A stretch of 63,793 nucleotides of DNA, filler included, from Licmophora abbreviata (Eukaryota), in NCBI GenBank assembly GCA_900291995.1. It is 9 parts of 9 records of this genome, joined end to end, with 100 filler letters (N's around TTAATTAATTAA, not from the genome) between each part and the next. Parts side by side here need not be neighbours in the genome. Positions count along the whole stretch, not along the records: positions 35,358 to 41,675 come from OLMU01000506.1; 8 more parts are not named here. One strand, given 5' to 3'. The translations under genes and the position numbers were made by a program. The notes beneath the pieces were generated by a model that worked only from the letters and a program-made list of their open reading frames with translations, was not told where the DNA came from and did no database searches. Within the stretch, counting starts at the first letter, position 1. Every line of letters starts with the position of its first letter. This document shows positions 12,885 through 62,210 of this stretch, in pieces.

Positions 12885-12984
12885 NNNNNNNNNNNNNNNN
12901 NNNNNNNNNNNNNNNNNNNNNNNNNNNNTTAATTAATTAANNNNNNNNNNNNNNNNNNNNNNNNNNNNNNNNNNNNNNNNNNNN
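12885..12984. other. Assembly spacer 1 (N44-TTAATTAATTAA-N44)
   Basis: Exact 100-nt pattern with stops in all six frames. Confidence 0.99.
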
Positions 12985-17034: not shown

Positions 17035-17134
17035 NNNNNNNNNNNNNNNNNNNNNNNNNNNNNNNNNNNNNNNNNNNNTTAATTAATTAANNNNNNNNNN
17101 NNNNNNNNNNNNNNNNNNNNNNNNNNNNNNNNNN
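17035..17134. other. Assembly spacer 2
   Basis: N44-TTAATTAATTAA-N44. Confidence 0.99.
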
Positions 17135-32120: not shown

Positions 32121-32220
32121 NNNNNNNNNNNNNNNNNNNNNNNNNNNNNNNNNNNNNNNNNNNNTTAATTAATTAANNNNNNNNNNNNNNNNNNNNNNNN
32201 NNNNNNNNNNNNNNNNNNNN
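32121..32220. other. Assembly spacer 3
   Basis: N44-TTAATTAATTAA-N44. Confidence 0.99.
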
Positions 32221-35257: not shown

Positions 35258-35357
35258 NNNNNNNNNNNNNNNNNNNNNNNNNNNNNNNNNNNNNNNNNNN
35301 NTTAATTAATTAANNNNNNNNNNNNNNNNNNNNNNNNNNNNNNNNNNNNNNNNNNNN
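35258..35357. other. Assembly spacer 4
   Basis: N44-TTAATTAATTAA-N44. Confidence 0.99.
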
Positions 35358-35628
35358 GAGCTCCCCATCAATATATCGACTTTGAGAATTCGTCGCGAGA
35401 GCGCGTCTGTCGGCATCCACGCGTGACACCGACGCGACGATCTGATGTGACGATGACAATAACAACTACAAAGCGCTTGTAGTGAGTGTTCCTGCTGCTG
35501 ACGACGCCGTGCTTGTGCATTCGATTGACCGAGCAACGGCGTTCCGTAAGAGGAAGGCTGAACGAGTTGAATTTAGATAACGCTTGGCGCAAAAATAGCA
35601 TACCAAAAGATCCCACAAGATATCGATC

Positions 35629-37226
35629 ATGATGTCGATGGCGTTGCTCGTCCTGCCTTGGACGCACAGCGTCGCCGTTGCGACTTCAGGAGAATTCTAC
35701 AAAAGACCAGCGGCAGACTTGACAAGAGGGGGTGCATCTGCAAAAGGCAGGCGTAGTAGGGACGACGCGAATGCCTATCGCGTTTTGGCCAGCTCGATAC
35801 GGAATAGACTTGGAGAGGAGGAACCTGTCGAGATTGAAGCACTGGAAAGAGCGCTGAAATCGCTGTCATCAGCGCAGAAAACGTTGAAAGGTCTAGATGG
35901 TGCTGCTCATGAGGCGTACCAGCGTACGCATCACGAATCGTCCGTAGACGCTGGCGTTTCTGGGCGTGCACGTCGAAGTGCAACGAGGGCGGGCAGCGCT
36001 GCCGATGCACTCTTCTCAGCAGAATTATGCGAACTTCTCGAAAACGCAAGTCTGCTCGACGAAACGGATGAAAACAGTACTCTTGCTGGTAGACAGATAC
36101 TCCTGACTACCTCTGAGGTTCAGATGACCAGGGATCAAAACGTGTCGGTGCTCGTTCTATTTGAACCATTGTATGACGGCGGTGTGGCCTCGACCACGGG
36201 GGCATCGAGGATCTGGCGCAGTCATCCGGCCGACCCAACAAGAGACGCGGTAGACTCATTGTTGTGGTTGGTGATAAGGTTGCACATGATCTTCCGAAAA
36301 CGATAGCTATCCTCGATGCTGCACCCTTGGCTCTAGAGCTGCACAGCGGACTGGTTGCAAATGAAATGGCATCTGTCCAAGGAACATTGTATCGAGCAGC
36401 AGGGCGATTGCTGAGAGCAATTGAACCCAGTATTCGCACCTATAATGAATCCGCGGTCCATTTTGTGGGGCGCTCGTTGGCTGGTGGCGTGGCTGGTCTT
36501 GCCGCAACGATACTAGACGGGTCGCTTCCCATGCCAGAATCGAAAACATCATCCAAGAAGAAAAAGAAGCGGAAGGCCTTACTAAACGGCACAGACACCG
36601 GCGCTAGTTGCGCGTCAACTCTCGATGGATTCGGCCAAGGGAGGGCTTCTGCTTCAGTCCTCGGTGTGCCTCCTTGTCTCTCCGGAAACGTCAAGGCGTC
36701 ATTCGTGAAGTCGATTATTTTTGGTGACGACGTCGTTTGCAGAACCACACAGGAAAGCTTAAATCATCTATGCTCCCGAACCCAGAAAGCTCTGGGTGGT
36801 GGCTTTCTTGGGAGACGAGTTGGGTGGATGACAGACACACTATCAATTACGGTACGAAAGTGAGAAACGTTGTGCTTTGTCTCCTGTCGCTGCCCTTTGT
36901 TGACCTTGCCGTTGCTCTTCTCTCAGATGTCGAGCCTCAAGAGCCATGCCCATGGCAGTGAAGGAGAGGAGGAGCGCCTTGTTGTACCTGGACAGGCCTT
37001 TCTAATACGACCGCGTCGATTAGGTGGAATGTGCAGCATGCATGAAGTTGGCTCAGCCAAGGGTGGCCGAGAGGCACTGCGGGCGGCAGTTTTGTGGCAG
37101 CTTCACGATGTTCTCCTCAGTAATAGCCTTTGGAAACATCATCAACTGGATTCTTATATTAATGGCTTGGATCGACTACAACTTCGCGGCTTCGATGACG
37201 AGGATGATCCAGGGACTCTATATTAA
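35629..37226 (+). CDS. Class-3 lipase-like alpha/beta hydrolase with signal peptide; 1-nt frameshift at ~36185; 2 exons
   Basis: FVGRSLAGG (nucleophile elbow), GVPPC, IFGDDVVCR and HHQLDSY. Intron 36852-36926. Adding one base at ~36185 joins the 35629 and 36264 ORFs (GxGLDHGGIEDL). Confidence 0.7.
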
Positions 37227-37234
37227 TAGCGCGC

Positions 37235-39428
37235 TTATGCTTCTAAAACATCATTAATGAAATTATTAAGCGTAGCTTCATACGGACTCGTCAACCTAGG
37301 CCTTTTGCGCATCTTTTGCGTTTCTTTTTCTTGGCACTCGTCATCCCGGCTCCACATACAACACACTCGAAACTCTGGATCTTTGTTTTCCTGGAGACAC
37401 TGCCCTTCGTTGTCTCTTGCCGCTCCACACCCATCCCGAAGAAAGTCGAAAAGAAGCAGATGGAAGTTACTACAACAGTTGCCGACCGTGAATCGTGCCA
37501 TCAACTGAGTCTTGAGGGAAGATATGGCGGACATCATGATTTCGTCGGTTGTGACATTGCGTTTGGCGAAATTTGTCGGGAGTCCTGTGCCCTGCCGGAC
37601 GTCTTCGTCGTTTGATACGAATCGATACGTGAACGGAACACTTTGTCGACTCACTGGGTCGGACTGGAATTTTGTCTTGTCACGAAAGATGCTTTCAGAT
37701 TCGGTTGTCAGAACAATGCTTGTTGTGGCGTTCGTCGGCAAGGCTTTCTTTCCAAAAGTGTCTATGATGAGGTGCTTGTTGTTGGTCCATACCTGTCCCA
37801 TCAGTTTCATGTACTGAGAGAATGAAAGACATTCGCTCTCTTGAAGGCACTTGTCAGATGCTGTCGGGAACAAATCACGTCAACATATTTAGCAACGACA
37901 TAGCTTCGCTAACGCCTGTGTCCCAACGTCAGCAATACGCACCTCGAACGGGTAAACCAAAAGATAGCTCGGGGTCAAAATCACCTGGAAACACAGTGTC
38001 CATGAGCTTGTTAAGCGCGACAGCTTTGGATGGTCTGGGGCGAAGACTATAGAATACGGCGGCATGATGAACTTTTGACTGCGCCCCAAAGTAGTAGTAT
38101 GGCCGTGATTCGTCCTCAGGTTCCACTTCAACAATTTTTTCAGCTGCCTTTTCCATGATATAAAGACGCGGGTCGTGATCGTTTGCTTCTCGTATTTCCT
38201 GGATAATGACTTCTGACACATTTCGAAGGTTCGGACGGAGCGTTTCGGGGGTTCTCTGCGGGCGCAGAACAATATCTACAGCCAGGACTCGGTCGTTGAC
38301 ATGGGCATCCGGAAGCAAACCATACCGAAACATTCTTCGAGCCTCACCACGTTCCAGCATGTACGCCTCTTCGATTTCCTTATTGGTCAGGACACACGGG
38401 GACGGCGGCAGGAAGAAACATTGAATATCACGCCTATCGCAGCTGGCGTGCACCCATGGTTTCCGAATCGTCTTGTGCCCAGCAGGAGCGTTATTGACAA
38501 ATAATACAGTTCGATTCGTTGCCATACCAGCAATCAGACCATTTACAGCACCCAGTCTCATGACGGCTCCAAGCCCCAGCTCGCCCATGGGCACAATGAG
38601 GAATTTGGCGTCGGGACATTCGTAGTCAAAGGTCCGGACACTGTGATCGCGAAGCAGCTCTGCACATTGTCCGTTCATTGCTTTTCGCGCCTTCGCTTCC
38701 TTCATGGCGGGCATATGTTGATGAACGTGAAACGCAAGGTACACGAGACGCAGAGTCCAGAAACGTACGCTCTGCGTGTCGCTTCCATCGTCAGTCCAAT
38801 TCAAGAAGCGAGATCTTTCATGACAGATTGTTTGATTCAGAAGCGTATGCAGGGTGCCACCAGATAAAAGGTTCGGAGTATTGAGAATCATCTCCATGGC
38901 ATGGTCCTCTGTCAACAGAGGGTCATCGGCGTTACCGAGTCTTGGACCCGACAACCATTCCTTTGAGTTGTAGGGAAAGCAAGTTTCCATTGACGCTTTC
39001 GGGGGCTCTTCTTCTATCGATATTCCTTTGCTGACTAATGAGGTTGCATTATCACTTGTCTTGGTCGGAATCCGCTCCTTATCTTGAGTCACATCGCTTT
39101 CTTCTCGACTGGTGGCTGGCATGGTAGTGACTTCCTGTTGTTGACGTCTACTCTCGGCACGTCGTCGCTCCTCGATACCAGCACTGCTGTTCGTTCGCAT
39201 AGTGAAAACCTGTGGTAGATCCAACAGGATATCATATGCGGCCGACCGATGCTTAGCGTCATTATTATGAAAAAGAATCACCGAAACAATCGTGACGACA
39301 TACGCAGCGACAAGTGCAGCCGCAAATTTCAGAGCCGACGATCGATTTCTCTTTGTTCGTCGTAACGGCCTTTCTGAACCTCCATTCTCCGAGGCAGAGA
39401 TTGGACTGCGGTTCAATATAGTAGACAT
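37235..39428 (-). CDS. GT23/FUT8-like (alpha-1,6/O-fucosyltransferase superfamily) type II membrane protein; 2 exons
   Basis: N-terminal TM, GLGAVMR, spliced motif LPVRASDKC (cf. FUT8 HVRRTDK), LTTE, VGNCCSNF; intron 37861-37942. Confidence 0.65.
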
Positions 39429-39707
39429 AGTTCTGGAGGCAAGAAGATGATCTGCCTTCGTCTGAAAGCTCTTCAATCATCACTTGAATACGACGCCGCC
39501 GCTGGCATCATGTCATGGTCATTTGTGAGCGCGGCGCTTTTAGATTGAAATACCTCAAGTCGAAGGAGTCGAGTCGACTTCATATTATATCAATCAGGCC
39601 CAATCATCCATAGCGCTCTGGCAAGTTGAAAAGGACGAGAATTGAAGAGCATGCGATTGCGATGACCAAGATTGAAAGAGTTGAGACTCTGTTGGCTCGA
39701 TCTGACC

Positions 39708-41326
39708 ATGACGGTCGCCCACGTGGGCGTGATTGGCAGTTCTGGGGGAGGCGCTGCTACATTGGGCCATACTCAGCCTTCGCAGCTTTTACAGACAATT
39801 CACAATGAGCTGCAAAAAATTGAGAATGGAGCCGTGTTGTCGCATGCCCTCTTTGTATCGCTGCACGGCGGCTCAGGCTTGGATACTGCCCACGGGGAGA
39901 AAGACTTCGCTTCGCTATATTCTGTCGGCTCTCAATCAGCGTCGGTCAATACAGGAGACAACTCGATGATTCACGTGAATCTTGTCGAGACGAACACTTT
40001 GTCGAAAGTCAACCAGACATGCCGCCGAATGGATAGTGCAATCGCAAAGGCTATCCGGAAGAAAAAGATACAAGGCTTAATACTGATCTCTATTGATATC
40101 GATATTCACGCGGATACACTCAAGGCTGCCTCTGATATGAAGATTCCTGTGACAGGAAGCGGAGGCTCCAGTTTGTCGGCTGCTGCTGCGACTTTCGGGA
40201 TACGGCTGGCTGGAAACGCCGGAGGGTCGGTAGCAACCACGTCGTATACTAGAGCCGTCTCCTATGCACATGCACTGGCAACCGCATGGCAGTTTTCTTA
40301 TAGTGTATTCTCTACGAATGCAGCGATGGGCCTCCGACCTCAATGGAAAAGTGTTTTGAACTCGTGCTTGCCTGCATTCTGGGCTATTTGCTTAGCGTGT
40401 CGAGGAGTAGACGTGTTGAATGACTATGGGGTTCTCAACTCAGCCAACCCTCTTCCGCTTCTTCGAACAAATGCCCTACCAACGACCTGCTGTATTGTTA
40501 TGGCCACGTCGTGTGCATCACATCATGGAAGCACTGTCGCCATTGCTGCTAGTATCGCATCCATGGCGTGCTCGCAATCGATTCTTTCCGGATTGATAGC
40601 TGGTTGGATCGTTGCCTTTCTTGTTGGACGAGTTCTCTATCGCTGTGTTGTATGGGGTATCCCGGCGACCATGACGAATCTGCTTGTCGCGGGTGGGGTC
40701 GGTACCACTGTAGCGATTCTCATTGCACCGCTTGTTCCGTTGCTATGCCGGCTGTCGACCTGGGTACGATGGGCCATTCTGAAATCCATGGAGGGCGAAT
40801 ACCAGGGATCGGATTCCTCTTCGGGTGTCTCTTTTGCTATGGGAGCAAAGTGGGTTATTATCATGCGCTCTGCTTGCCTCTCATTCTGCTGGAAATGGAA
40901 CTAGGAGGTGGCAGTCTATGGGGTGCCATGGATGTATGCACACTGGTTGTCGTATCGGCAGGAGTCTGTTCTGCAAATCTGCTGACGTTGCCGTCGACCG
41001 AAAAGTCCGATCGAGATTTATGCGGGCGAGCAGTGTGGATCAACCTTTTGTGTGGCGACTTCGTTGAGGCGGCCTATCCGTACATGGAACAGAGCATGAT
41101 CGTAAATCTGACGGGCTACTTGGCGAGTGGACTGGCAGTAGAAATGCTGACCAAGGACCCTCATCGCGTCTTGAGCTCAGCCTATATGCCTGTTCCTGCT
41201 AGTATTTTGCTTGCCACTGACTCGAAGCGCATGGCACTGGCATGCGCTATAGCATTCGGCGTATCGTTCTCAGGGACGTTTGTGAACAATATTCTCTTTC
41301 GAACGAGCACTACAAAAAAAGCATAA
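39708..41326 (+). CDS. Bacterial-type PTS-EIIC-like polytopic membrane protein with N-terminal soluble domain; 1-nt frameshift at ~40794
   Basis: VGVIGSSGG, IPVTGSGGSS and GGSVATTSYTRAVS, then ~8-10 TM helices with GYYHALCLPLILLEME and INLLCGDFVEAAYPYM. No introns. One extra G in the GGG run (40793-40795) fuses the two ORFs. Confidence 0.7.
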
Positions 41327-41449
41327 GCTTGGAAGCCGATATGACGCTAACGACTTCCATTAGAGCATAATGCAATCTGAAATTCTTATTCACTTGACAT
41401 TTGTACGGTGGAATGGATCAATTGGCTCTAATTCATAATTTGGAATCGA

Positions 41450-42566
41450 TCAGTCGGTCCAATCTATCCGAATAGGTCTACCGAGCAAGTTCTTTCCATT
41501 GAGCGTCGCCCCTTTTTCACATGCCTCTGTATTCCAGAACTCCACAAAACCGCTTCGCCACAGAAAAGAGTATTAGGGAATAGATTAACAGTCAGAAGGC
41601 AGGTCACCATCATGTGGCATTGACAACCCGTGTGCGCACTTACCATCCCTTGAAATCGCCACTATCCTGGTGGTGNNNNNNNNNNNNNNNNNNNNNNNNN
41701 NNNNNNNNNNNNNNNNNNNTTAATTAATTAANNNNNNNNNNNNNNNNNNNNNNNNNNNNNNNNNNNNNNNNNNNNCCATTGGCAAAGAACTTTGTAATTG
41801 TCTCGTCGTCGATATCATAGGACAAGTTGCCAATGAACAGCTTGACACAATTTTCAGGCTTGGCGCTCATAGCTTTTAAACCGGAACCGCCAGCTTGGCC
41901 ACCCGAAACGACCTTCTTCGGTGGAGGCCACACGTCTCCATCGCGGGCGGGAGCAAAATTGATCTTGATTGGTCGACCCATTAATTGCGATCCTGCCATT
42001 TTGACAGCTCCAGCAGCGTTTTCAGGCGTGTCAATCTCGCAGAAGGCCGATCCATAAAACTTTCCCGTCTCCTTGTCGGTGATCCATTTGATGTGAGTGA
42101 GCGTGCCCGGCAAGAACGAACTCAACGAGTCTTCATCTACAGCAAAAGGGAGGTTCCCTAGGAAGAGACGCGTTACACCCTGTGGATTCCCCTTGCACGG
42201 CTTGTTTGTTGCGCGCTGTACATCATGAGTCTCCTCTCCTTGGATTTTAGGCGACTCTTCCTGGACCGATTCCTCTGATCGCTTCTTTTTTGATTTCTGT
42301 GATCCATCGGCGTCATCTTTGGATTTTCGCTTCGACTTCTTAAGCTTGACCATGCCTTCTGCATTCAGTTTGATAAGTCCATCGTCTTCTAGAGACTGCA
42401 CTGCATTCTTGTACTTCTTCTTTGTGGCCTTGTCTGCGTCGTCGATCTGGAGAGACAGAAGCACCATCTTCCGTAGCTTCTTCACTTGAAGCTTTTCCGA
42501 TGCGCCGCGAAGCGTCGACAGAATCGCATTAGTCCAAACCTCGTCTCCAGTATGGTCGCTGCCCAT
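41450..42566 (-). CDS. Double-RRM (nucleolin/GAR2-like) RNA-binding protein spanning spacer 5
   Basis: RNP2 LFLGNL and LFIGNL, RNP1 FYGSAFCEI. After the gap HHQDSGDFKG-(intron)-CGFVEFWN..GRPIRIDWTD* completes RRM2. Confidence 0.88.
41676..41775. other. Assembly spacer 5
   Basis: N44-TTAATTAATTAA-N44. Confidence 0.99.
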
Positions 42567-52603: not shown

Positions 52604-54859
52604 ATGGTGGATCCGGTGTCGATGCCATTAGACTTGCCGAAGCCGCAGAGAGCGCCACACTCACGTAGGAGAACAACAGGATCCTTGTCTCCAGCTAACG
52701 CAACGAAACCAATCTCTCAGAATGATCCTCCTCAGCCTTCAAGAAGAAAGAGAGCATCAGGTCGCTTTCAATGCGCCCTGGCCATGTCCCGGGCAGAGAC
52801 AGTCCTTGTCTCCGCCACCGGCGACGTGCTTGTTTCTCGATCTCGGTCCTCACCATACGCAATCGTCGAGCATCCGATCATCTCTGGGAAGAGCGCAGCT
52901 TCAAAGGAAGATNNNNNNNNNNNNNNNNNNNNNNNNNNNNNNNNNNNNNNNNNNNNTTAATTAATTAANNNNNNNNNNNNNNNNNNNNNNNNNNNNNNNN
53001 NNNNNNNNNNNNCAACGTGGTGGAGATCGGGCGACAATTCCTTGTGCGGCATGTGTATTCCCGGAGACGACGACCCTCATTCCAGTGGCGGACTACTCGG
53101 TGGTGCGGCGCAAGTCGCAAACGAGATCGTGAAGGCAGAGAGCGAGACCAAACGGGAGGAAGATGAACGCGTTCTTCTTGAACGACAAACTGTGGAAAAG
53201 ATGTATCCTGATCTGCCATCTGATGCGGACGAGGAGTCGATACTGCCTCTTCCGAGCTTTGACTACTCACATTTCACAGAGGGCGGAAATGACATGGAAT
53301 CGATTTCTGCTCCTCGTCGACGGACGCATTCTGGGCAGCTATCACCTCTTCACGAGAATTCAATTTCGCACGGACATATCTTGGATGACGAAACGACTGA
53401 ACGACCAGCAAGGCAGCTCACGCCACCGCTTGTGATGCACGGAGTGCCAACATTCCTACCAGCATTTTCTCAGATAAGAGTGACGAAGGTATCTGCTCAT
53501 CCCCTTGGATCGCACATGCTACTCATTTCCTCTGCAGCGCTATTATTTTCTTGTGGCCTGAACGATAACGGACAGCTAGGACTCGGGCGGAAGACACCAA
53601 TTGATGGCAAAACGAAAGGTTTTGTTACTACACCTACTATCGTCACACCTCTCCTGGAGAACGGAGGGAAAGCTACCGTGTGTGCAGCCGGAGTCAATAA
53701 CTCACTAGTTGTTGTAAAGACAGAAGGTAGACGGGTGGGGAGGTTTCGTCGACTGTCACGGGCGATGACGTCGTCACTGTCCAGTGTTGACACTGTCAAA
53801 GAGAACGGAGAGCCCTATCCGTCTCGTGGTGATGCATCGACGTCGGTTTGGCACCACCAGCTATATGGTTTCGGGGGAAACGAATGTCAGAAACTAGGAC
53901 TCGTGAATACCAAAGAGAGCGCCGAGAATGATGTTCTTCTTCCTCGTCGCGTGGCGCTTCACTGCAACGTTTTCCAGGGAACGGACGACGCCAATGGGAT
54001 TTTTGCGATAGCGGCATCATCGCACCACTCAGCGGCTCTGGTAAGGCTTTCCACTGGCACCACAGAAGTGTACACTTGGGGGAATGCTGGTGATGGTGCC
54101 CTTGGTCATTGCGAGAAAGTGACGTCAGGTATTGTTCCCGTCCCAACCATCGTTCCCTCTTTGTCGACGGAATCGTCTGAAAAGGACCGTCCTGTTCAAC
54201 TTGCTGTTGGACCAGTATCGACCTTTGTTGTAACATCGGCAGGCCGATGCTTGAGCTTTGGTTCGAGCGATGGCCTTCTCGGCCACGGGCGCAATGCAAT
54301 GTATGTGGCTCAACCCAAAGAAATTGTATTTCCGTCATCGGGCCATGGTGGAACGGAGATACGAAGCGTGAGCGTAGGGGCACGCCATGCGGTTGCTATT
54401 GCCGCTGACGGGCGTGCATTCACCTGGGGCGATTCATCGCACGGGAGAACAGGCTTGGGAGGCGGTCGAGCAGAATTCTTGCCGATTACCAATGACCGAG
54501 ATCGCAGTAGAGTACACGCCAATCCAACGATCGAATACACACCTCAGCAAGTCAAGATATCCCGTCCGACTCGTGATATCGATCTCCGGAAAGTCAGCCG
54601 AAGGAGGGTGCTGTCAGACAGTCAGCTAGGCGAAGCTGTGGCATCGTGCCGACTGGACGATGGTCCTCCAAGAGCAGAGCACAAGAGCACGGATCGATTC
54701 GCAACCGCCTGTGCTGGATACGACGGCACGGTCTTCTTGACGGAGTCTGGGTCTGTACTATCTTGTGGAAAAGGTTCTGGTCGTCTTGCCCAGGGCTCAA
54801 AGACGTCAGACTCCTTGCACCCTGCAAAAGTGTTTGGAGGTCTTTACCTATGGAGATAG
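52604..54859 (+). CDS. RCC1/BLIP-II repeat protein spanning spacer 6
   Basis: SCGLNDNGQLGLG, YGFGGNECQKLG, YTWGNAGDGALG and SVGARHAVA..FTWGDSSHGRTGLG. The ORF before the gap (52604-52912) is probably its N-terminus. Confidence 0.8.
52913..53012. other. Assembly spacer 6
   Basis: N44-TTAATTAATTAA-N44. Confidence 0.99.
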
Positions 54860-58480: not shown

Positions 58481-61400
58481 CTAGCGAGCGAATCTGCTTG
58501 TGGTCCGCGAGCTAGGTCCAAGGCCTCCGCCGAGAGACGCGGGGTCCGGGTCTCCGCCGGGCGGACCGCCAATGCCCATGAGACTAATGGCTTCAATGTC
58601 GACATCTTGAGAAGGATTGTTTTGAAAGAGATTGAGATTGTTGAGCATGCCGGAGACGACGTCCATGTCAGCGACGCCGGTGTTGTCTTCATCTCCATCG
58701 TCAACGAGCGCAAACAAACGACCACGACGACTACTCTTCCGAGACTCGCCGGGAAAGGACGCACCCAGAGTAGAGCCGCCAATCGCGCTAAACTCTGACG
58801 GACCTGTTTCCTGTCGTTGGGGGCGAGGGGATAGACCTTCGATCGGGGCGGTGTATCCACTGGGAGATATCACAGGAGGGTTCGTCGTGCCGTTCCTATC
58901 CGAGGGGTAGCCGCCCGGCGGGACGGCGGGTATAACCGATGGAGTCGGCGACATCACAGCAACGCCCATTCCCTGGATCATGCTGATAACTGATCTTTCG
59001 TTGAGAGTAAATCGTGAGTGGCCTGCATCGTTCTGCATGACGACGAAAAGGCTCGCCGTGGGGCACAACACCGAGGTCCCGGGGCTCCGGCGAGACGCAA
59101 ACGAATGCTGCCTACCAGGAAGCACCTCGGCAAATCTGACATACGCACCATGTCGACTATTCAGGCGAGGGTCGAGCATGGTAAGATCGTTGATGGTTGG
59201 AGGACGATTCAACTCGCGGAAGCAATCGCTATGAAGAACCAAAACGCATGACACTGGAAGGCGTTTCGCGTCCGCTGCCTCCAACAAGTCGATCAGCTTG
59301 CGGACGTAGAGAGAAGACATCATGTAATCAACCGGCGGGAACACCGACAGAGATGTCCCACGAGCTAGAAAAGCAGTCTCACCGCCTCCGTTTTCCTTGC
59401 CAAACGGCGGCAGGCCACCAAAGACCGAGTCGGTGTCAGGGAAACGCCCGCAGAACACATTGCTACCAAAGGTAGAAAAAGGATCTGACCAGAGCTCGGC
59501 GGACACGTTTGCCTCCCTTGCGAAAGATCCCTGAGCGGTGGACAAGAGACCATAGTCCATCGTTGTCCCTGCTGCAAGCGCTCCCATAATGTCATGACGC
59601 ATTTTGGCACTGAAGATCGATGTGAGGATCTTCCCGGGTGTACCTGTGTAGCGTTCTCTCAGTCTGGCGAAGGTCGATGGAGGCATATTGACCTGAGCAC
59701 GATTGGCCCAGTTGACAACGACAACCTGTCCAAGCCCATTCCCCGCCATTTCAGATACCGTCAATCCAAGCATAGAGTCTGTCCATTCAGGAGGAAGCTG
59801 TGCGTTCAATCTTCCGACGATTTCGATCAGAGACTTCGACTGACTGAGGCACAAGCGAGCGAGAGCCGCTCCAGCTTCTTTCAGTGCCTCCATGCTCACC
59901 ATGCTTGCGTTGTTTGCATGTCCCGCCCCCTTCCGACTCTCGGCAATGAGCTGCCGCTGAAAGAAAGAAGTGAGGAGATCGGNNNNNNNNNNNNNNNNNN
60001 NNNNNNNNNNNNNNNNNNNNNNNNNNTTAATTAATTAANNNNNNNNNNNNNNNNNNNNNNNNNNNNNNNNNNNNNNNNNNNNCAACGAACGGAGAACTAT
60101 CGTGTGCCGCACGAACGACCCATCGACACAAAACAGCCTTTAGCCACGTGTCCGCGACGACTCGAAGAGGGTCAGAGGAGTCCGGTTGGCTACGGGCTTG
60201 AGCACATCGTTGTATAATCTCGGAAAGTTTCTCCTGTCTGTACAGCGACACGGCGGGAACCTCGACAGGCAAGGAGATGGGTAGCATGCCACCATTCACT
60301 ACGCGACCGATATCAGCCGGCACAGAATAGAGGAGACGATCCTGTGGAAGACTCTCCAGGGAGGAAACAGAGCTTCTTTCATCGGAGTGGCCAACACGCG
60401 CTATTCTCGTTGATGAGCCGGATCCACTAGGTGTCATCGCCAATCCTCGCTCCTCTTCGGATGTAGCCCTGGAAGGCGACTGAGCCACCGAGCTGTGAGA
60501 AGAATTCGGGGCGAGAGACGGCGCACTACGTGCCGATGGAGTTGTGCTCTTCGCTTCCCAGCCTCTTGTCTTCGTGAAAGATCCGCCACGGCTGGAACCT
60601 GGAGTGCCGGGACTGCGGGCCGACTTCAGCGCTGGACTCTCAATCGGAGGAGATCCGTCACGTGCTAGCTGAGCAGATTTCTTCGTAGGTTTGCTCCTTG
60701 ATCGCCTGGAGTTCCCCAAAGGTGAGGACACCTGTTTCTCAGCTGCTTCAAGCTTATCCAACTGCAGGCGTTCCGCCTCCCGCTTCTGTCGTTCCTTCTC
60801 GTCTTTCTCCTTCCGTTTCTTGAACACTTGCTCTCGCTCCGCCGCTTCACGATGCCGCTGCTCCCTTGCTCGCTCCTCGCGTTCTTTTCGCTCATTTTCT
60901 TCCTGGAGTTTTCGCTTACGCTCCCGTTCATTGTCTTCCTGTTGCACTTTTTCTCGTTTCTCTTGCTCTTCTTTCAATCGCAGCTGGCGCTCGCGTTCTT
61001 TCTTCTTCTTTTTCTTCGCTCGTTTGGAGCTAGCAACGGCCTCGTCTTTCTGCGCTTTCGTTTCTTCTTGTTCGAGCTCCTTTAGAAGCGCTTCCTCGGC
61101 AGCGCGTGCTTGTGCCTCTGCGGACTCTTTGCTGGCTTTCGGTTTCTTCTTTTTCTTCCCCGAAGGCGACGGTTTTGTGTTTCCGTTTTCGTCGTGCAGA
61201 GCAGAGTTTGATTTGTCACTATCGCTCTCGTCGGTCTCGTCGTCAGTACTCAAGCTCATCAAACCATCCCGTTGCATTTGTTTAATGCGAAGACTGATCA
61301 ACAAACGGGCGCGTTGGACTTTCTTTCTATCTCGAGAGCAGCGCGGGATGCTAGCTTTATACTCCGTCACCATCTCCACAGCTGTGTCGATCATATCTTG

Positions 61401-62110: not shown

Positions 62111-62210
62111 NNNNNNNNNNNNNNNNNNNNNNNNNNNNNNNNNNNNNNNNNNNNTTAATTAATTAANNNNNNNNNNNNNNNNNNNNNNNNNNNNNNNNNN
62201 NNNNNNNNNN
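62111..62210. other. Assembly spacer 8
   Basis: N44-TTAATTAATTAA-N44. Confidence 0.99.

Follow-up and report, generated by a model that had tools for sequence, protein, structure and literature searches.

The sugar phosphotransferase system (PTS) and its EIIC permeases are, to our knowledge, textbook examples of machinery confined to prokaryotes, and we know of no EI/HPr relay in eukaryotes. In organisms without EI and HPr, EIIC-type proteins are thought to act as PTS-independent secondary carriers; the cases known to us are prokaryotic and have no fused N-terminal glycine-rich domain. The gene considered here lies in a stretch of 63,793 nucleotides, filler included, from the diatom Licmophora abbreviata (GCA_900291995.1), which we call the window. 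Its product belongs to a two-domain family that has no name so far, here termed Rossmann-EIIC, in which an N-terminal Rossmann-like domain is followed by a C-terminal EIIC-fold permease. The family is old, conserved and algal, and it is uncharacterised: full-text literature searches found no paper on it, and in PMC9033121 "PTS" denotes prenyltransferases. Overall, the observations are best explained by a transporter that combines a cytosolic Rossmann-like domain with an EIIC-fold permease, a reading that we consider probable.

As in the preliminary description, the gene is intronless and joins a soluble N-terminal domain to a polytopic membrane domain within ~539 codons (Table 1). All six motifs quoted there were found in the two overlapping ORFs, with GVIGSSGG, IPVTGSGGSS and GGSVATTSYTRAVS in the first and GYYHALCLPLILLEME, GAMDVCTLVVVSAGV and INLLCGDFVEAAYPYM in the second. 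The conserved reading follows frame 0 to ~40795 and frame 2 from 40796, ending with the stop codon at 41324-41326. In an alignment to 28 full-length homologues, 39708-40796 and 40796-41323 meet end to end with no residue lost (..KSMEG / RIPGIGF..), and base 40796 ends the Gly codon 40794-40796 and also opens the Arg codon 40796-40798; thus, one base is absent in or just after the GGG run at 40793-40795. An intron cannot account for the shift, since the only nearby GT..AG pair (40764/40805) encloses 42 nt and keeps the frame, and since no residue is absent in the alignment. Judged from the alignments, conservation on both sides of the slip is strict and far above chance: the gene keeps 109/109 of the columns that are at least 90 % conserved among the 28 homologues and, in an alignment of 21 bacterial and eukaryotic members, 33/33 of the columns invariant across domains and 29/35 of those nearly invariant. 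Read as assembled, frame 0 ends at 40904, without the last third of the protein and its GDFVE motif. Parts of the stretch occur in seven public sequencing runs, no RNA run among them. In four metagenome runs with ~99 %-identical pieces no contig crosses the region 40717-40816, and two pattern scans of metagenome contigs, in which the slip site could carry either no additional base or one, gave 0 matches.

Table 1. Positions of the gene, its domains and motifs, and its surroundings, counted along the window.
Feature	Position	Strand	Remarks
Whole gene	39708..41326	+	~539 codons, intronless; from ORFs and abutting alignment pieces
ORF, frame 0, 398 aa	39708..40904	+	
ORF, frame 2, 224 aa	40652..41326	+	Overlaps the frame-0 ORF
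Frame slip, 1 base short of the conserved frame	40793..40796	+	GGG run, then C
N-terminal soluble domain, residues 1-200	39708..40307	+	Predicted three-layer alpha/beta Rossmann-like fold
Glycine-rich loop 1, GSSGGG	39735..39752	+	Immediately follows strand 1; S/G invariant or nearly so in bacteria and eukaryotes
Glycine-rich loop 2, IPVTGSGGSS	40143..40172	+	Consensus IP[VI][TV]G[ST]GG[TS]S; conserved columns in both alignments
Glycine-rich loop 3 and next helix, AGNAGGSVATTSYTRAVS	40209..40262	+	Conserved columns in both alignments
Polytopic membrane domain, predicted PTS EIIC fold, ~340 residues	40308..41323	+	From the model of homologue P0002 and profile comparison
GYYH motif; His codon 40862-40864	40853..40864	+	Aligned counterpart of the histidines of GLHH in E. 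coli PtsG; Y and H invariant
GDFVE motif, then AAYPYM; Glu codon 41066-41068	41054..41068	+	Aligns with the Glu of GITE(P) in PtsG
Neighbour gene, fucosyltransferase-like type II membrane protein	37235..39428	-	Two long ORFs in different frames
Spacer N44+TTAATTAATTAA+N44	35258..35357		Left end of the gene's contig
Spacer N44+TTAATTAATTAA+N44	41676..41775		Right end of the gene's contig

In regard to the membrane domain, model and profile comparisons identify it as a remote homologue of PTS EIIC with the predicted EIIC fold, in agreement with the initial impression of an EIIC-like domain. Because the window protein cannot be read straight through, the closest full-length homologue, P0002 (58 % identical), was modelled with AlphaFold2, whose training set contains EIIC structures (pLDDT 90, pTM 0.87). 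The absence of an EIIC-like fold had been named beforehand as evidence to the contrary; the best 8 PDB matches of the model in Foldseek were all EIIC chains (probability 1.0). VIA-align placed P0002 residues ~202-546 on PtsG 8qsr with Z 17.0 (rmsd 5.0, 324 residues), followed by ChbC 3qnq (Z 16.0), MalT 6bvg (Z 15.7) and 9lgt (Z 15.3). These four alignments cover 320-325 residues with rmsd 5.0-5.3 and ~10-16 % identity, and the next non-EIIC structures (Z<=9.7) match the N-terminal domain. Likewise, hhalign comparison of the family profile (43 sequences) with 15 E. coli K-12 PF02378 proteins gave a probability of 98.5 % (E 3e-15) over 311 columns that span the whole membrane domain, with 96.5 % / 7.7e-10 for the Glc subgroup, 96.2 % / 2.3e-9 for the Fru/Mtl subgroup and 3.9 % (E 0.011) for PtsG alone. 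Language-model look-alikes outside the family's own clusters were PF02378 clusters (0.85-0.87). The EIIC-type His and Glu motifs, GYYH and GDFVE, are conserved: the family pattern G.F.E..YP is aligned with GITEP..F.FM of PtsG in the comparison with the 15 EIICs, and its residues G, E, Y and P do not vary across the 21-member alignment. In PtsG itself, we take GLHH and GITE to be the functional motifs.

PF02378 had no match in the two window pieces (E<=1) or in 7 eukaryote-type homologues (E<=10), for all of which Pfam and NCBIfam gave nothing meaningful, and the family profile matched 0 PDB sequences at E<=10. In bacterial-type members PF02378 stays under its curated cut-off (24.3 bits vs 30.7, E 1.9e-5), and sub-threshold matches were also found for TIGR01995 (45.7 bits vs 614.7, E 3.4e-12) and TIGR01996 (E 8.1e-9); such matches to EIIC models are limited to unnamed bacterial-type members.

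The N-terminal domain opens directly with strand 1, with no N-terminal extension read ahead of it. Its AlphaFold2 model, built from this stretch with the homologue alignment, has pLDDT 90.8 and pTM 0.89, with a lower pLDDT at loop 1 (69 for the block 11-20). A structure search with the domain yielded a flat list with Z 8-9.5, which includes one half of uroporphyrinogen III synthase, periplasmic-binding/LacI subdomains and flavodoxin-like folds; EIIB was absent among the 50 matches listed. Pfam Peripla_BP_4 was detected in 3/15 homologues scanned (E 8e-4 to 0.13). No Cys or His of the domain is invariant or nearly so in the 21-member alignment, and its profile reached hhalign probabilities of at most 0.2 % with the EIIB and EIIA portions of 15 E. 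coli PTS proteins and of 0.16 % with 12 PF02302 stretches, 2 of them in the wrong frame. The lack of a conserved Cys or His and of profile similarity argues, at the level of sequence, against a fused phospho-accepting EIIB. Two kinase candidates were rejected as well, PfkA (1.3 %, E 0.04), where the placement of IPVTGSGG on the GGDGS loop was non-significant, and YegS (DAGK_cat; hhalign probability 0.7 %). A PFK/NAD-kinase-like GGDG motif in this domain is unsupported.

Potential partners were searched in the gene surroundings. In the vicinity of 80 bacterial loci, no EIIA, EIIB, HPr or EI was found among the scanned ones of the 14 commonest neighbour clusters, and none of the 22 long ORFs scanned in the window was EI or HPr. 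In 10/80 bacterial loci the transporter gene is directly followed by one for a TIM-barrel protein weakly similar to HxlA/NanE/HisA/ThiE, and in 9/80 a Cof-type HAD phosphatase is encoded downstream. A four-gene island composed of the transporter, TIM barrel, HAD and DeoR is present in three E. coli genomes out of 5426 complete ones. Since the TIM-barrel neighbour is missing in 70/80 loci, the link to sugar phosphates is not general. The TIM-barrel protein has 702 relatives, and the 120 on the list are all bacterial or without a name. No TIM-barrel, HAD or DeoR partner was found on the contig of the diatom gene.

Sequence relatives of the gene comprise 160 proteins at E<=1e-3, the best being 57-58 % identical over 99 % of the query. 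The search for orthologues proposed in the preliminary description was fruitful: the best relatives with names are all from diatoms, namely Fragilaria crotonensis, Seminavis robusta, Mayamaea, Fragilariopsis and Grammatophora oceanica, and that of Seminavis robusta is annotated as "phosphotransferase system component". Profile search against 1.84 billion representatives recovered 549 clusters at E<=1e-3. Further named members come from Sporolactobacillus, Rubrobacter, Phaeothamnion, Amorphochlora, Namystynia and, within the Suessiales dinoflagellates, eight genera. Among eukaryotes the family thus extends over diatoms, Suessiales dinoflagellates, Phaeothamnion, a chlorarachniophyte and a diplonemid. 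Bacterial copies are rare, with 377 confirmed stretches in 185,579 species (one genome each), located by two peptide patterns of which one is loop 2. According to the alignments, the diatom protein is collinear over its full length with bacterial orphan proteins, and 33 columns are invariant in the collinear alignment of 15 bacterial or bacterial-type and 6 eukaryotic-type rows. The label "PTS sugar transporter", quoted in the preliminary description, is indeed the NCBI name of the full-length bacterial homologues, and the presumed fructose type is echoed by some JGI rows named "fructose-specific phosphotransferase system IIC component". Best matches in a widespread family of eukaryotic transporters had been named as a refuting outcome, and this is in part what is seen, as the best matches are algal and the family is widespread.

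The family tree was computed with a quick method, is unrooted and contains 43 rows: 8 named bacterial, 11 named eukaryotic and 24 metagenome or transcriptome proteins of unknown host. Its rows were hand-picked from the 115 left once 285 full-length proteins had been filtered at 62 % identity, with the addition of 8 translated bacterial loci, the window gene, P0017, P0029, P0039 and P0085; P0512 (Cladocopium, branch length 10) was part of a 44-row tree and was dropped for the final one. With bacterial homologues included, as had been advised, a single branch splits the named bacteria from the named eukaryotes, and one change is needed between the 8 and 11 rows (SH-aLRT 99). The window gene falls in clades of 10 rows (SH-aLRT 97) and of 17 rows (100), in both of which every named row is eukaryotic; it is placed inside the diatom clade of a family spanning several algal lineages. 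Its identity is 26-29 % with the bacterial proteins and up to 60 % with diatom-type proteins. Tree and best relatives therefore agree with the earlier assignment of the gene to a eukaryotic genome. The accompanying view of a bacterial-type gene, horizontally acquired, is not supported in that form: the best relatives are diatom proteins and the bacterial ones reach only 26-29 %. The tree does contain one change between bacteria and eukaryotes.

The tree is consistent with one inter-domain transfer in the family, which could have gone either way, as an unrooted tree does not give the direction. Identity among the named bacterial rows, which represent four phyla, is 43-67 %, compared to 28-72 % among the named eukaryotic rows. 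Given this shallowness of the bacterial rows beside the eukaryotic ones, and the lack of a root, bacteria may conceivably have obtained their copies from an alga instead of having supplied them. In our model, a single ancient exchange with bacteria would stand at the origin of the algal family, which would then have been inherited vertically in diatoms and have spread from alga to alga.

The window contains 8 spacers of the form N44+TTAATTAATTAA+N44, which represent contigs joined by a six-frame stop linker, and the contig that carries the gene spans 35358..41675 (6.3 kb). The genes for NOG1, Kelch, WW, ankyrin, RCC1, protein kinase and GT10 proteins are on other joined contigs of the window. 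The earlier statement that the gene shares a gap-free segment with intron-containing eukaryotic genes accordingly fails for the clearly eukaryotic genes, and holds insofar as the neighbour gene on the same contig is probably intron-bearing. Its two ORFs are probably joined by an intron, for which 37942..37861 (82 nt, GT-AG), connecting both in frame, is the best candidate beside 54 alternative frame-keeping GT..AG pairs in a permissive scan. The neighbour has no Pfam match, and its look-alike clusters by language-model features (9/9 among the matches listed) are 90-100 % eukaryotic, with a best score of 0.94. As a candidate for another gene with introns, the same contig also carries lipase-3-like ORFs at 35599-37226 with two frame changes, which 45 and 24 frame-keeping GT..AG pairs fit. 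GC content here is ~0.47-0.50, like the remainder of the window.

Several other explanations of the locus can be considered in the light of these data. The 6.3-kb contig could be bacterial contamination wrongly joined with eukaryotic contigs, since the joins are artificial, the gene is therefore not physically linked to those for NOG1, Kelch and kinase, and bacterial members of the family exist. This is nevertheless highly improbable: the gene shares 41-56 % identity with named diatom proteins, against 26-29 % with bacterial ones, it is nested among named eukaryotes with SH-aLRT 97-100, its orthologues in named diatoms sit on scaffolds 74 to 885 kb long, its neighbour resembles only eukaryote-dominated clusters and is split in two frames as by an intron, and its GC content matches the rest of the window. 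We give equally little credence to a recent transfer from a bacterium specific to the Licmophora lineage, as the preliminary description proposed, which the intronless structure and the same architecture in bacterial homologues would favour; the distance to the nearest bacterial proteins relative to the diatom-type ones, the position deep in the diatom clade and the single branch between named eukaryotes and named bacteria all oppose it. A pseudogene at 39708..41326 is less remote, if still unlikely. In that case the deletion would be real and the protein would stop at 398 residues with a wrong-frame tail, truncated before the C-terminal third of the EIIC domain. The slip is present in the assembly as given, its site is only GGG and no long homopolymer, and it is uncontradicted by the four metagenome runs, whose contigs leave 40717-40816 uncovered. 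On the other hand, 176 codons past the slip remain open, the retention of every conserved column (109/109 and 33/33) would be unexpected after long decay, and the window consists of joined draft-quality contigs, in which consensus indels occur. We infer that an assembly or strain-mixture error is the more likely source of the one-base slip than an old lesion.

As to function, the Rossmann-EIIC transporter would be an elevator-type carrier that takes a sugar, or a solute resembling one, across a cellular membrane with no need for the EI/HPr/EIIA/EIIB relay. Its fused N-terminal domain would be placed where EIIB would dock and could serve as a phosphate- or nucleotide-binding module with a regulatory or coupling role. 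Alternatively, that domain could itself be the phosphoryl donor, its three glycine-rich loops binding phosphate and ATP, pyrophosphate or polyphosphate being used to phosphorylate the sugar in the EIIC site. Such a mechanism, to which we assign a rather low probability, would amount to PEP-independent group translocation by one polypeptide that replaces EI, HPr, EIIA and EIIB, and it would explain both the working of the family in eukaryotic algae and the sugar-phosphate-type TIM-barrel enzyme and sugar-phosphate phosphatase found after some bacterial copies. Slightly more doubtful again is a receptor or transceptor, whose EIIC domain would bind extracellular sugar while the N-terminal domain relays the signal. 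The likeness of that domain to single lobes of sugar-binding LacI/periplasmic-binding proteins (Z ~9) points in this direction, together with the Peripla_BP_4 matches (E 8e-4 to 0.13 in 3/15 homologues scanned) and with the failure of our searches to find an energy-coupling partner. However, the protein retains the EIIC His and Glu motifs that serve sugar binding and translocation, the structure matches of the N-terminal domain form a flat, generic list, and all characterised EIIC domains known to us are transporters.

An EIIC-fold permease family conserved across diatoms, and present also in dinoflagellates and other algae, concerns organisms that include major marine primary producers. If the Rossmann-EIIC protein is truly a carrier of sugars or related solutes, it would constitute an unrecognised route for the uptake, release or sensing of organic carbon, with a bearing on mixotrophy and on the exchange between algae and bacteria. 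The glycine-rich fused domain is uncharacterised in bacteria too, having no Pfam or NCBIfam model and no PDB relative by sequence, and understanding it would reveal how an EIIC is driven without a phosphorelay. As a marker, the family could furthermore cleanly record one transfer between domains as well as a link from diatoms to dinoflagellates.

Compared to the PTS EIIC permease domains of the glucose/fructose/lactose superfamily (PF02378; E. coli PtsG 8qsr, B. cereus MalT 5iws/6bvg, ChbC 3qnq), the diatom protein has the same predicted fold over ~320 residues, and GYYH and GDFVE are the counterparts of the GLHH His and the GITE Glu. The family is about equally far from the Glc and Fru/Mtl subgroups. 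It differs from PTS EIIC in its sub-cut-off or absent model matches, in having no recognised EIIB or EIIA, fused or adjoining, and, for the diatom gene, in its eukaryotic host. The bacterial orphans, such as RYL97418.1 of Sporolactobacillus and WP_080030396.1 of E. coli DSM 103246, are closer: they have ~515-535 aa and the same two domains, are collinear with the diatom protein from end to end and share the 33 invariant columns, among which are positions of the three glycine-rich loops, of YH, of LP..L.E.E and of G.F.E..YP. Like the diatom proteins, they lack a Pfam or NCBIfam model. Named bacterial rows are 25-35 % identical to the named eukaryotic ones, and the loops differ in detail, loop 1 being GSSGGN..NLGG in bacteria and GSSGGG.ATLGHT in diatoms, and loop 3 SGTTGTTNRTRA in bacteria and GNAGGSVATTSYTRA in diatoms. 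Some bacterial copies belong to the transporter/TIM-barrel/HAD/DeoR island, whereas the contig of the diatom gene carries none such. With the PTS-independent EIIC carriers, the diatom protein has in common an EIIC-fold permease without a recognisable phosphorelay.

The membrane domain of the window gene is EIIC-like, as the preliminary description had proposed from short motifs, each of which is present in one or the other of the two open frames of the gene. Neither Pfam nor NCBIfam had a meaningful match to the two pieces of the window protein or to any of seven eukaryote-type homologues, a few bacterial-type members had sub-threshold EIIC matches in these libraries, and no PDB sequence was found with the profile of the family, here called Rossmann-EIIC. 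The AlphaFold2 model of P0002, the closest full-length homologue (58 % identical), was built with an alignment of 28 full-length homologues (A1) and reached a pLDDT of 90 and a pTM of 0.87. The best eight PDB matches of this model in Foldseek were all EIIC chains. VIA-align placed it on PtsG (8qsr, Z 17.0), ChbC (3qnq, 16.0), MalT (6bvg, 15.7) and 9lgt (15.3), with 320-325 residues matched at an rmsd of ~5 across P0002 residues ~202-546; the next, non-EIIC rows had Z ≤9.7 and were confined to the N-terminal domain (N-domain). Independent evidence at the sequence level came from hhalign, in which 43 family sequences were compared with E. coli K-12 proteins holding PF02378 (15 in all); the probability was 98.5 % against all 15 EIICs (E 3e-15, 311 columns), 96.5 % against the Glc subgroup and 96.2 % against the Fru/Mtl subgroup.

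In regard to the N-domain, the first 200 residues of the window protein were modelled with a pLDDT of 90.8 as a three-layer alpha/beta domain, the hallmark of which is three conserved glycine-rich loops (GSSGGG, IPVTGSGGSS and GNAGGSVATT). Its search against 48,161 chains returned a flat list at Z 8-9.5, holding uroporphyrinogen III synthase halves, single lobes of periplasmic-binding/LacI proteins and flavodoxin-like domains, and the domain as modelled is a generic Rossmann-like fold. EIIB features are lacking; no conserved Cys or His was found in the N-domain in A2, an alignment of 15 bacterial or bacterial-type and 6 eukaryotic-type rows, and the domain profile had no significant match to EIIB/EIIA, PfkA or YegS.

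The window gene comprises ~539 codons and is intact apart from one frame slip (coordinates of all features are listed in the table). In A1, the pieces 39708-40796 and 40796-41323 abut with no residue lost (..KSMEG / RIPGIGF..), and in the DNA the Gly codon 40794-40796 and the Arg codon 40796-40798 overlap by one base, so that one base must be lacking within the GGG run 40793-40795 or after it. An intron was rejected as the cause, because the only GT..AG pair nearby spans 42 nt. All 109 columns conserved in at least 90 % of the 28 homologues are kept by the window gene, as are all 33 columns invariant in 21 bacterial and eukaryotic members. Since conservation downstream of the slip is perfect and the sequence is a draft of joined pieces, an artefact or a strain variant is the probable explanation, and a real, recent lesion is rather unlikely. 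Parts of the gene are covered by metagenome contigs ~99 % identical to the window; none of these covers 40717-40816, and pattern scans of metagenome contigs for the slip site gave no match.

Marine metagenome contigs from four runs (X1, X2, X3 and X5) of two studies match parts of 39500-41500, mostly at ≥99 % identity and in some pieces at 95-99 %. They are short and often broken, and none runs across 40717-40816. The organism or a near relative therefore occurs in the sea.

Features of the window and of a bacterial locus
Feature	Position	Strand	Description
Spacers	12885-12984, 17035-17134, 32121-32220, 35258-35357, 41676-41775, 52913-53012, 59983-60082, 62111-62210		44 N + TTAATTAATTAA + 44 N
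Contig of the window gene	35358..41675
Window gene, ORF 1	39708..40904	+	frame 0, 398 aa
Window gene, ORF 2	40652..41326	+	frame 2, 224 aa
G.YH motif, window copy	40853-40864
G(D/T)F(V/I)E..YP.M motif, window copy	41054-41068
Neighbouring gene	37235-39428	-	fucosyltransferase-like type II membrane protein, two open frames
Probable intron of neighbouring gene	37942..37861	-	82 nt, GT-AG
Lipase-like region	35599-37226	+	three successive ORFs in different frames
E. coli DSM 103246 island	L097, 7010-11090		Rossmann-EIIC, 278-aa TIM barrel, Cof-type HAD-IIB, DeoR/GlpR; also L005, L058, L076, L078 (bacterial loci)

The eight spacers of the window are identical, and TTAATTAATTAA with its flanking N is a six-frame stop linker joining contigs; order and neighbourhood across spacers therefore do not represent physical linkage. 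This corrects the earlier placement of the gene on the same gap-free segment as intron-containing eukaryotic genes, as those of plainly eukaryotic type (NOG1, Kelch, WW, ankyrin, RCC1, protein kinase and GT10) are carried by different contigs of the window. GC content is even throughout the window. On the gene's own contig, the neighbouring gene has open frames of 515 and 214 codons, in different frames and 49 nt apart, which are probably joined in frame by the intron proposed from sequence, beside which 54 other frame-keeping GT..AG pairs fit in a permissive scan. Its product has an N-terminal membrane anchor and no Pfam match, and all nine look-alike clusters listed from language-model features (best score 0.94) are 90-100 % eukaryotic, several being fucosyltransferase-like. 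The lipase-like region of the same contig carries a class-3-lipase-like G.S.(A)GG stretch (Pfam Lipase_3, E 0.012) and is probably a single gene with introns, for which many GT..AG pairs fit.

With the N-terminal two thirds of the window protein as query, 160 proteins matched at E≤1e-3, the best with 57-58 % identity, 99 % query cover and lengths of 530-610 aa. The named best matches are diatoms, namely Fragilaria crotonensis, Seminavis robusta (annotated 'phosphotransferase system component'), Mayamaea pseudoterrestris, Fragilariopsis cylindrus and Grammatophora oceanica; a further named match is the eukprot entry 'Skav', which we take to be Symbiodinium kawagutii. The A1 profile found 549 clusters at E≤1e-3 (208 at E≤1e-30) among 1.84 billion representatives, naming the chlorarachniophyte Amorphochlora amoebiformis, the diplonemid Namystynia karyoxenos (transcriptome), Phaeothamnion confervicola and a Suessiales dinoflagellate cluster (P0029, P0039) with Durusdinium, Polarella, Symbiodinium, Cladocopium, Pelagodinium, Ansanella and Effrenium. 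Bacterial members from Sporolactobacillus and Rubrobacter are both labelled 'PTS sugar transporter', and the Sporolactobacillus protein as query gave 899 matches, mostly Bacillales and also Yersinia and Salmonella, that carry either this label or 'fructose-specific phosphotransferase system IIC component', which bears out the likeness to such proteins stated in the preliminary description. Bacterial and algal proteins are collinear end to end in A2. With 377 loci confirmed out of 386 pattern matches in 185,579 prokaryotic species (one genome each), bacteria carry the family only rarely.

A 124-row FastTree and two IQ-TREE quick trees were concordant. In the final 43-row tree (IQ-TREE quick, unrooted, 24 rows without assigned host), a single bacteria/eukaryote change, on a branch with an SH-aLRT of 99, accounts for the named rows, of which 8 are bacterial and 11 eukaryotic. 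Two clades that hold the window gene, one of 10 rows (97) and one of 17 (100), have only eukaryotes among their named members; the row nearest to the gene is the metagenome protein P0001 (60 % identity). The identity of the window gene is 41-56 % to named diatoms, 33-36 % to Amorphochlora, Namystynia and Phaeothamnion, and 26-29 % to bacteria; identities are 43-67 % among named bacteria of four phyla and 28-72 % among named eukaryotes. The Suessiales and 'Skav' sequences nest beside Fragilaria inside the diatom clade (SH-aLRT 97 and 100), P0029/P0039 being 53 % identical to the window gene, which suggests a diatom-to-dinoflagellate transfer. P0512 (Cladocopium goreaui, 502 aa, source name PI4P 5-kinase) falls in P0039's 90 % cluster, yet has a branch length of 10; a chimeric gene model or wrong clustering is the probable cause.

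In our reading of these sequence relationships, the gene passed between the domains once, long ago, and vertical descent in diatoms came next, together with the link from diatoms to dinoflagellates. The unrooted tree does not show the direction of the exchange; a transfer from bacteria to algae would be more economical, because to our knowledge EIIC is otherwise prokaryotic in every case.

Neighbours were clustered for 80 bacterial loci and cluster representatives scanned. A 278-aa TIM-barrel protein, weakly resembling HxlA, NanE, HisA and ThiE, lies directly downstream of the transporter in 10 loci and a Cof-type HAD phosphatase downstream in 9, often with a DeoR or GntR regulator next, linking some bacterial members to sugar-phosphate chemistry. 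The TIM-barrel proteins of Yersinia, Chloroflexota, Varibaculum and Tissierella are 62-67 % identical (alignment A3). In E. coli, a four-gene island, annotated PTS sugar transporter / histidine biosynthesis protein / Cof-type HAD-IIB hydrolase / DeoR, is accessory (3 of 5426 complete genomes); in other phyla, the TIM-barrel gene directly follows the transporter, with a GntR/DeoR regulator next in three of four loci. Surroundings were unrelated in 70 of the 80 loci, and of the 14 commonest neighbour clusters, none of those scanned was EIIA, EIIB, HPr or EI.

The protein is probably an elevator-type carrier of a sugar or sugar-like solute working without the EI/HPr relay. The fused N-domain, probably placed at the cytosolic face in the EIIB docking position, would bind a phosphate-bearing ligand and regulate or energise transport; that it is itself the phosphoryl donor is the boldest reading and an unlikely one. 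Full-text searches listed no paper that deals with this family or with algal EIIC-like proteins, and in PMC9033121 'PTS' stands for prenyltransferases. The EIIC likeness is already present in database annotation (the Seminavis entry, NCBI and JGI names); new in an EIIC-superfamily permease is the fused domain, and unexpected is the host range. The sugar-site motifs are conserved, as in hhalign the GLHH of PtsG corresponds to the invariant G.YH of the family, and GITEP..F.FM to G(D/T)F(V/I)E..YP.M.
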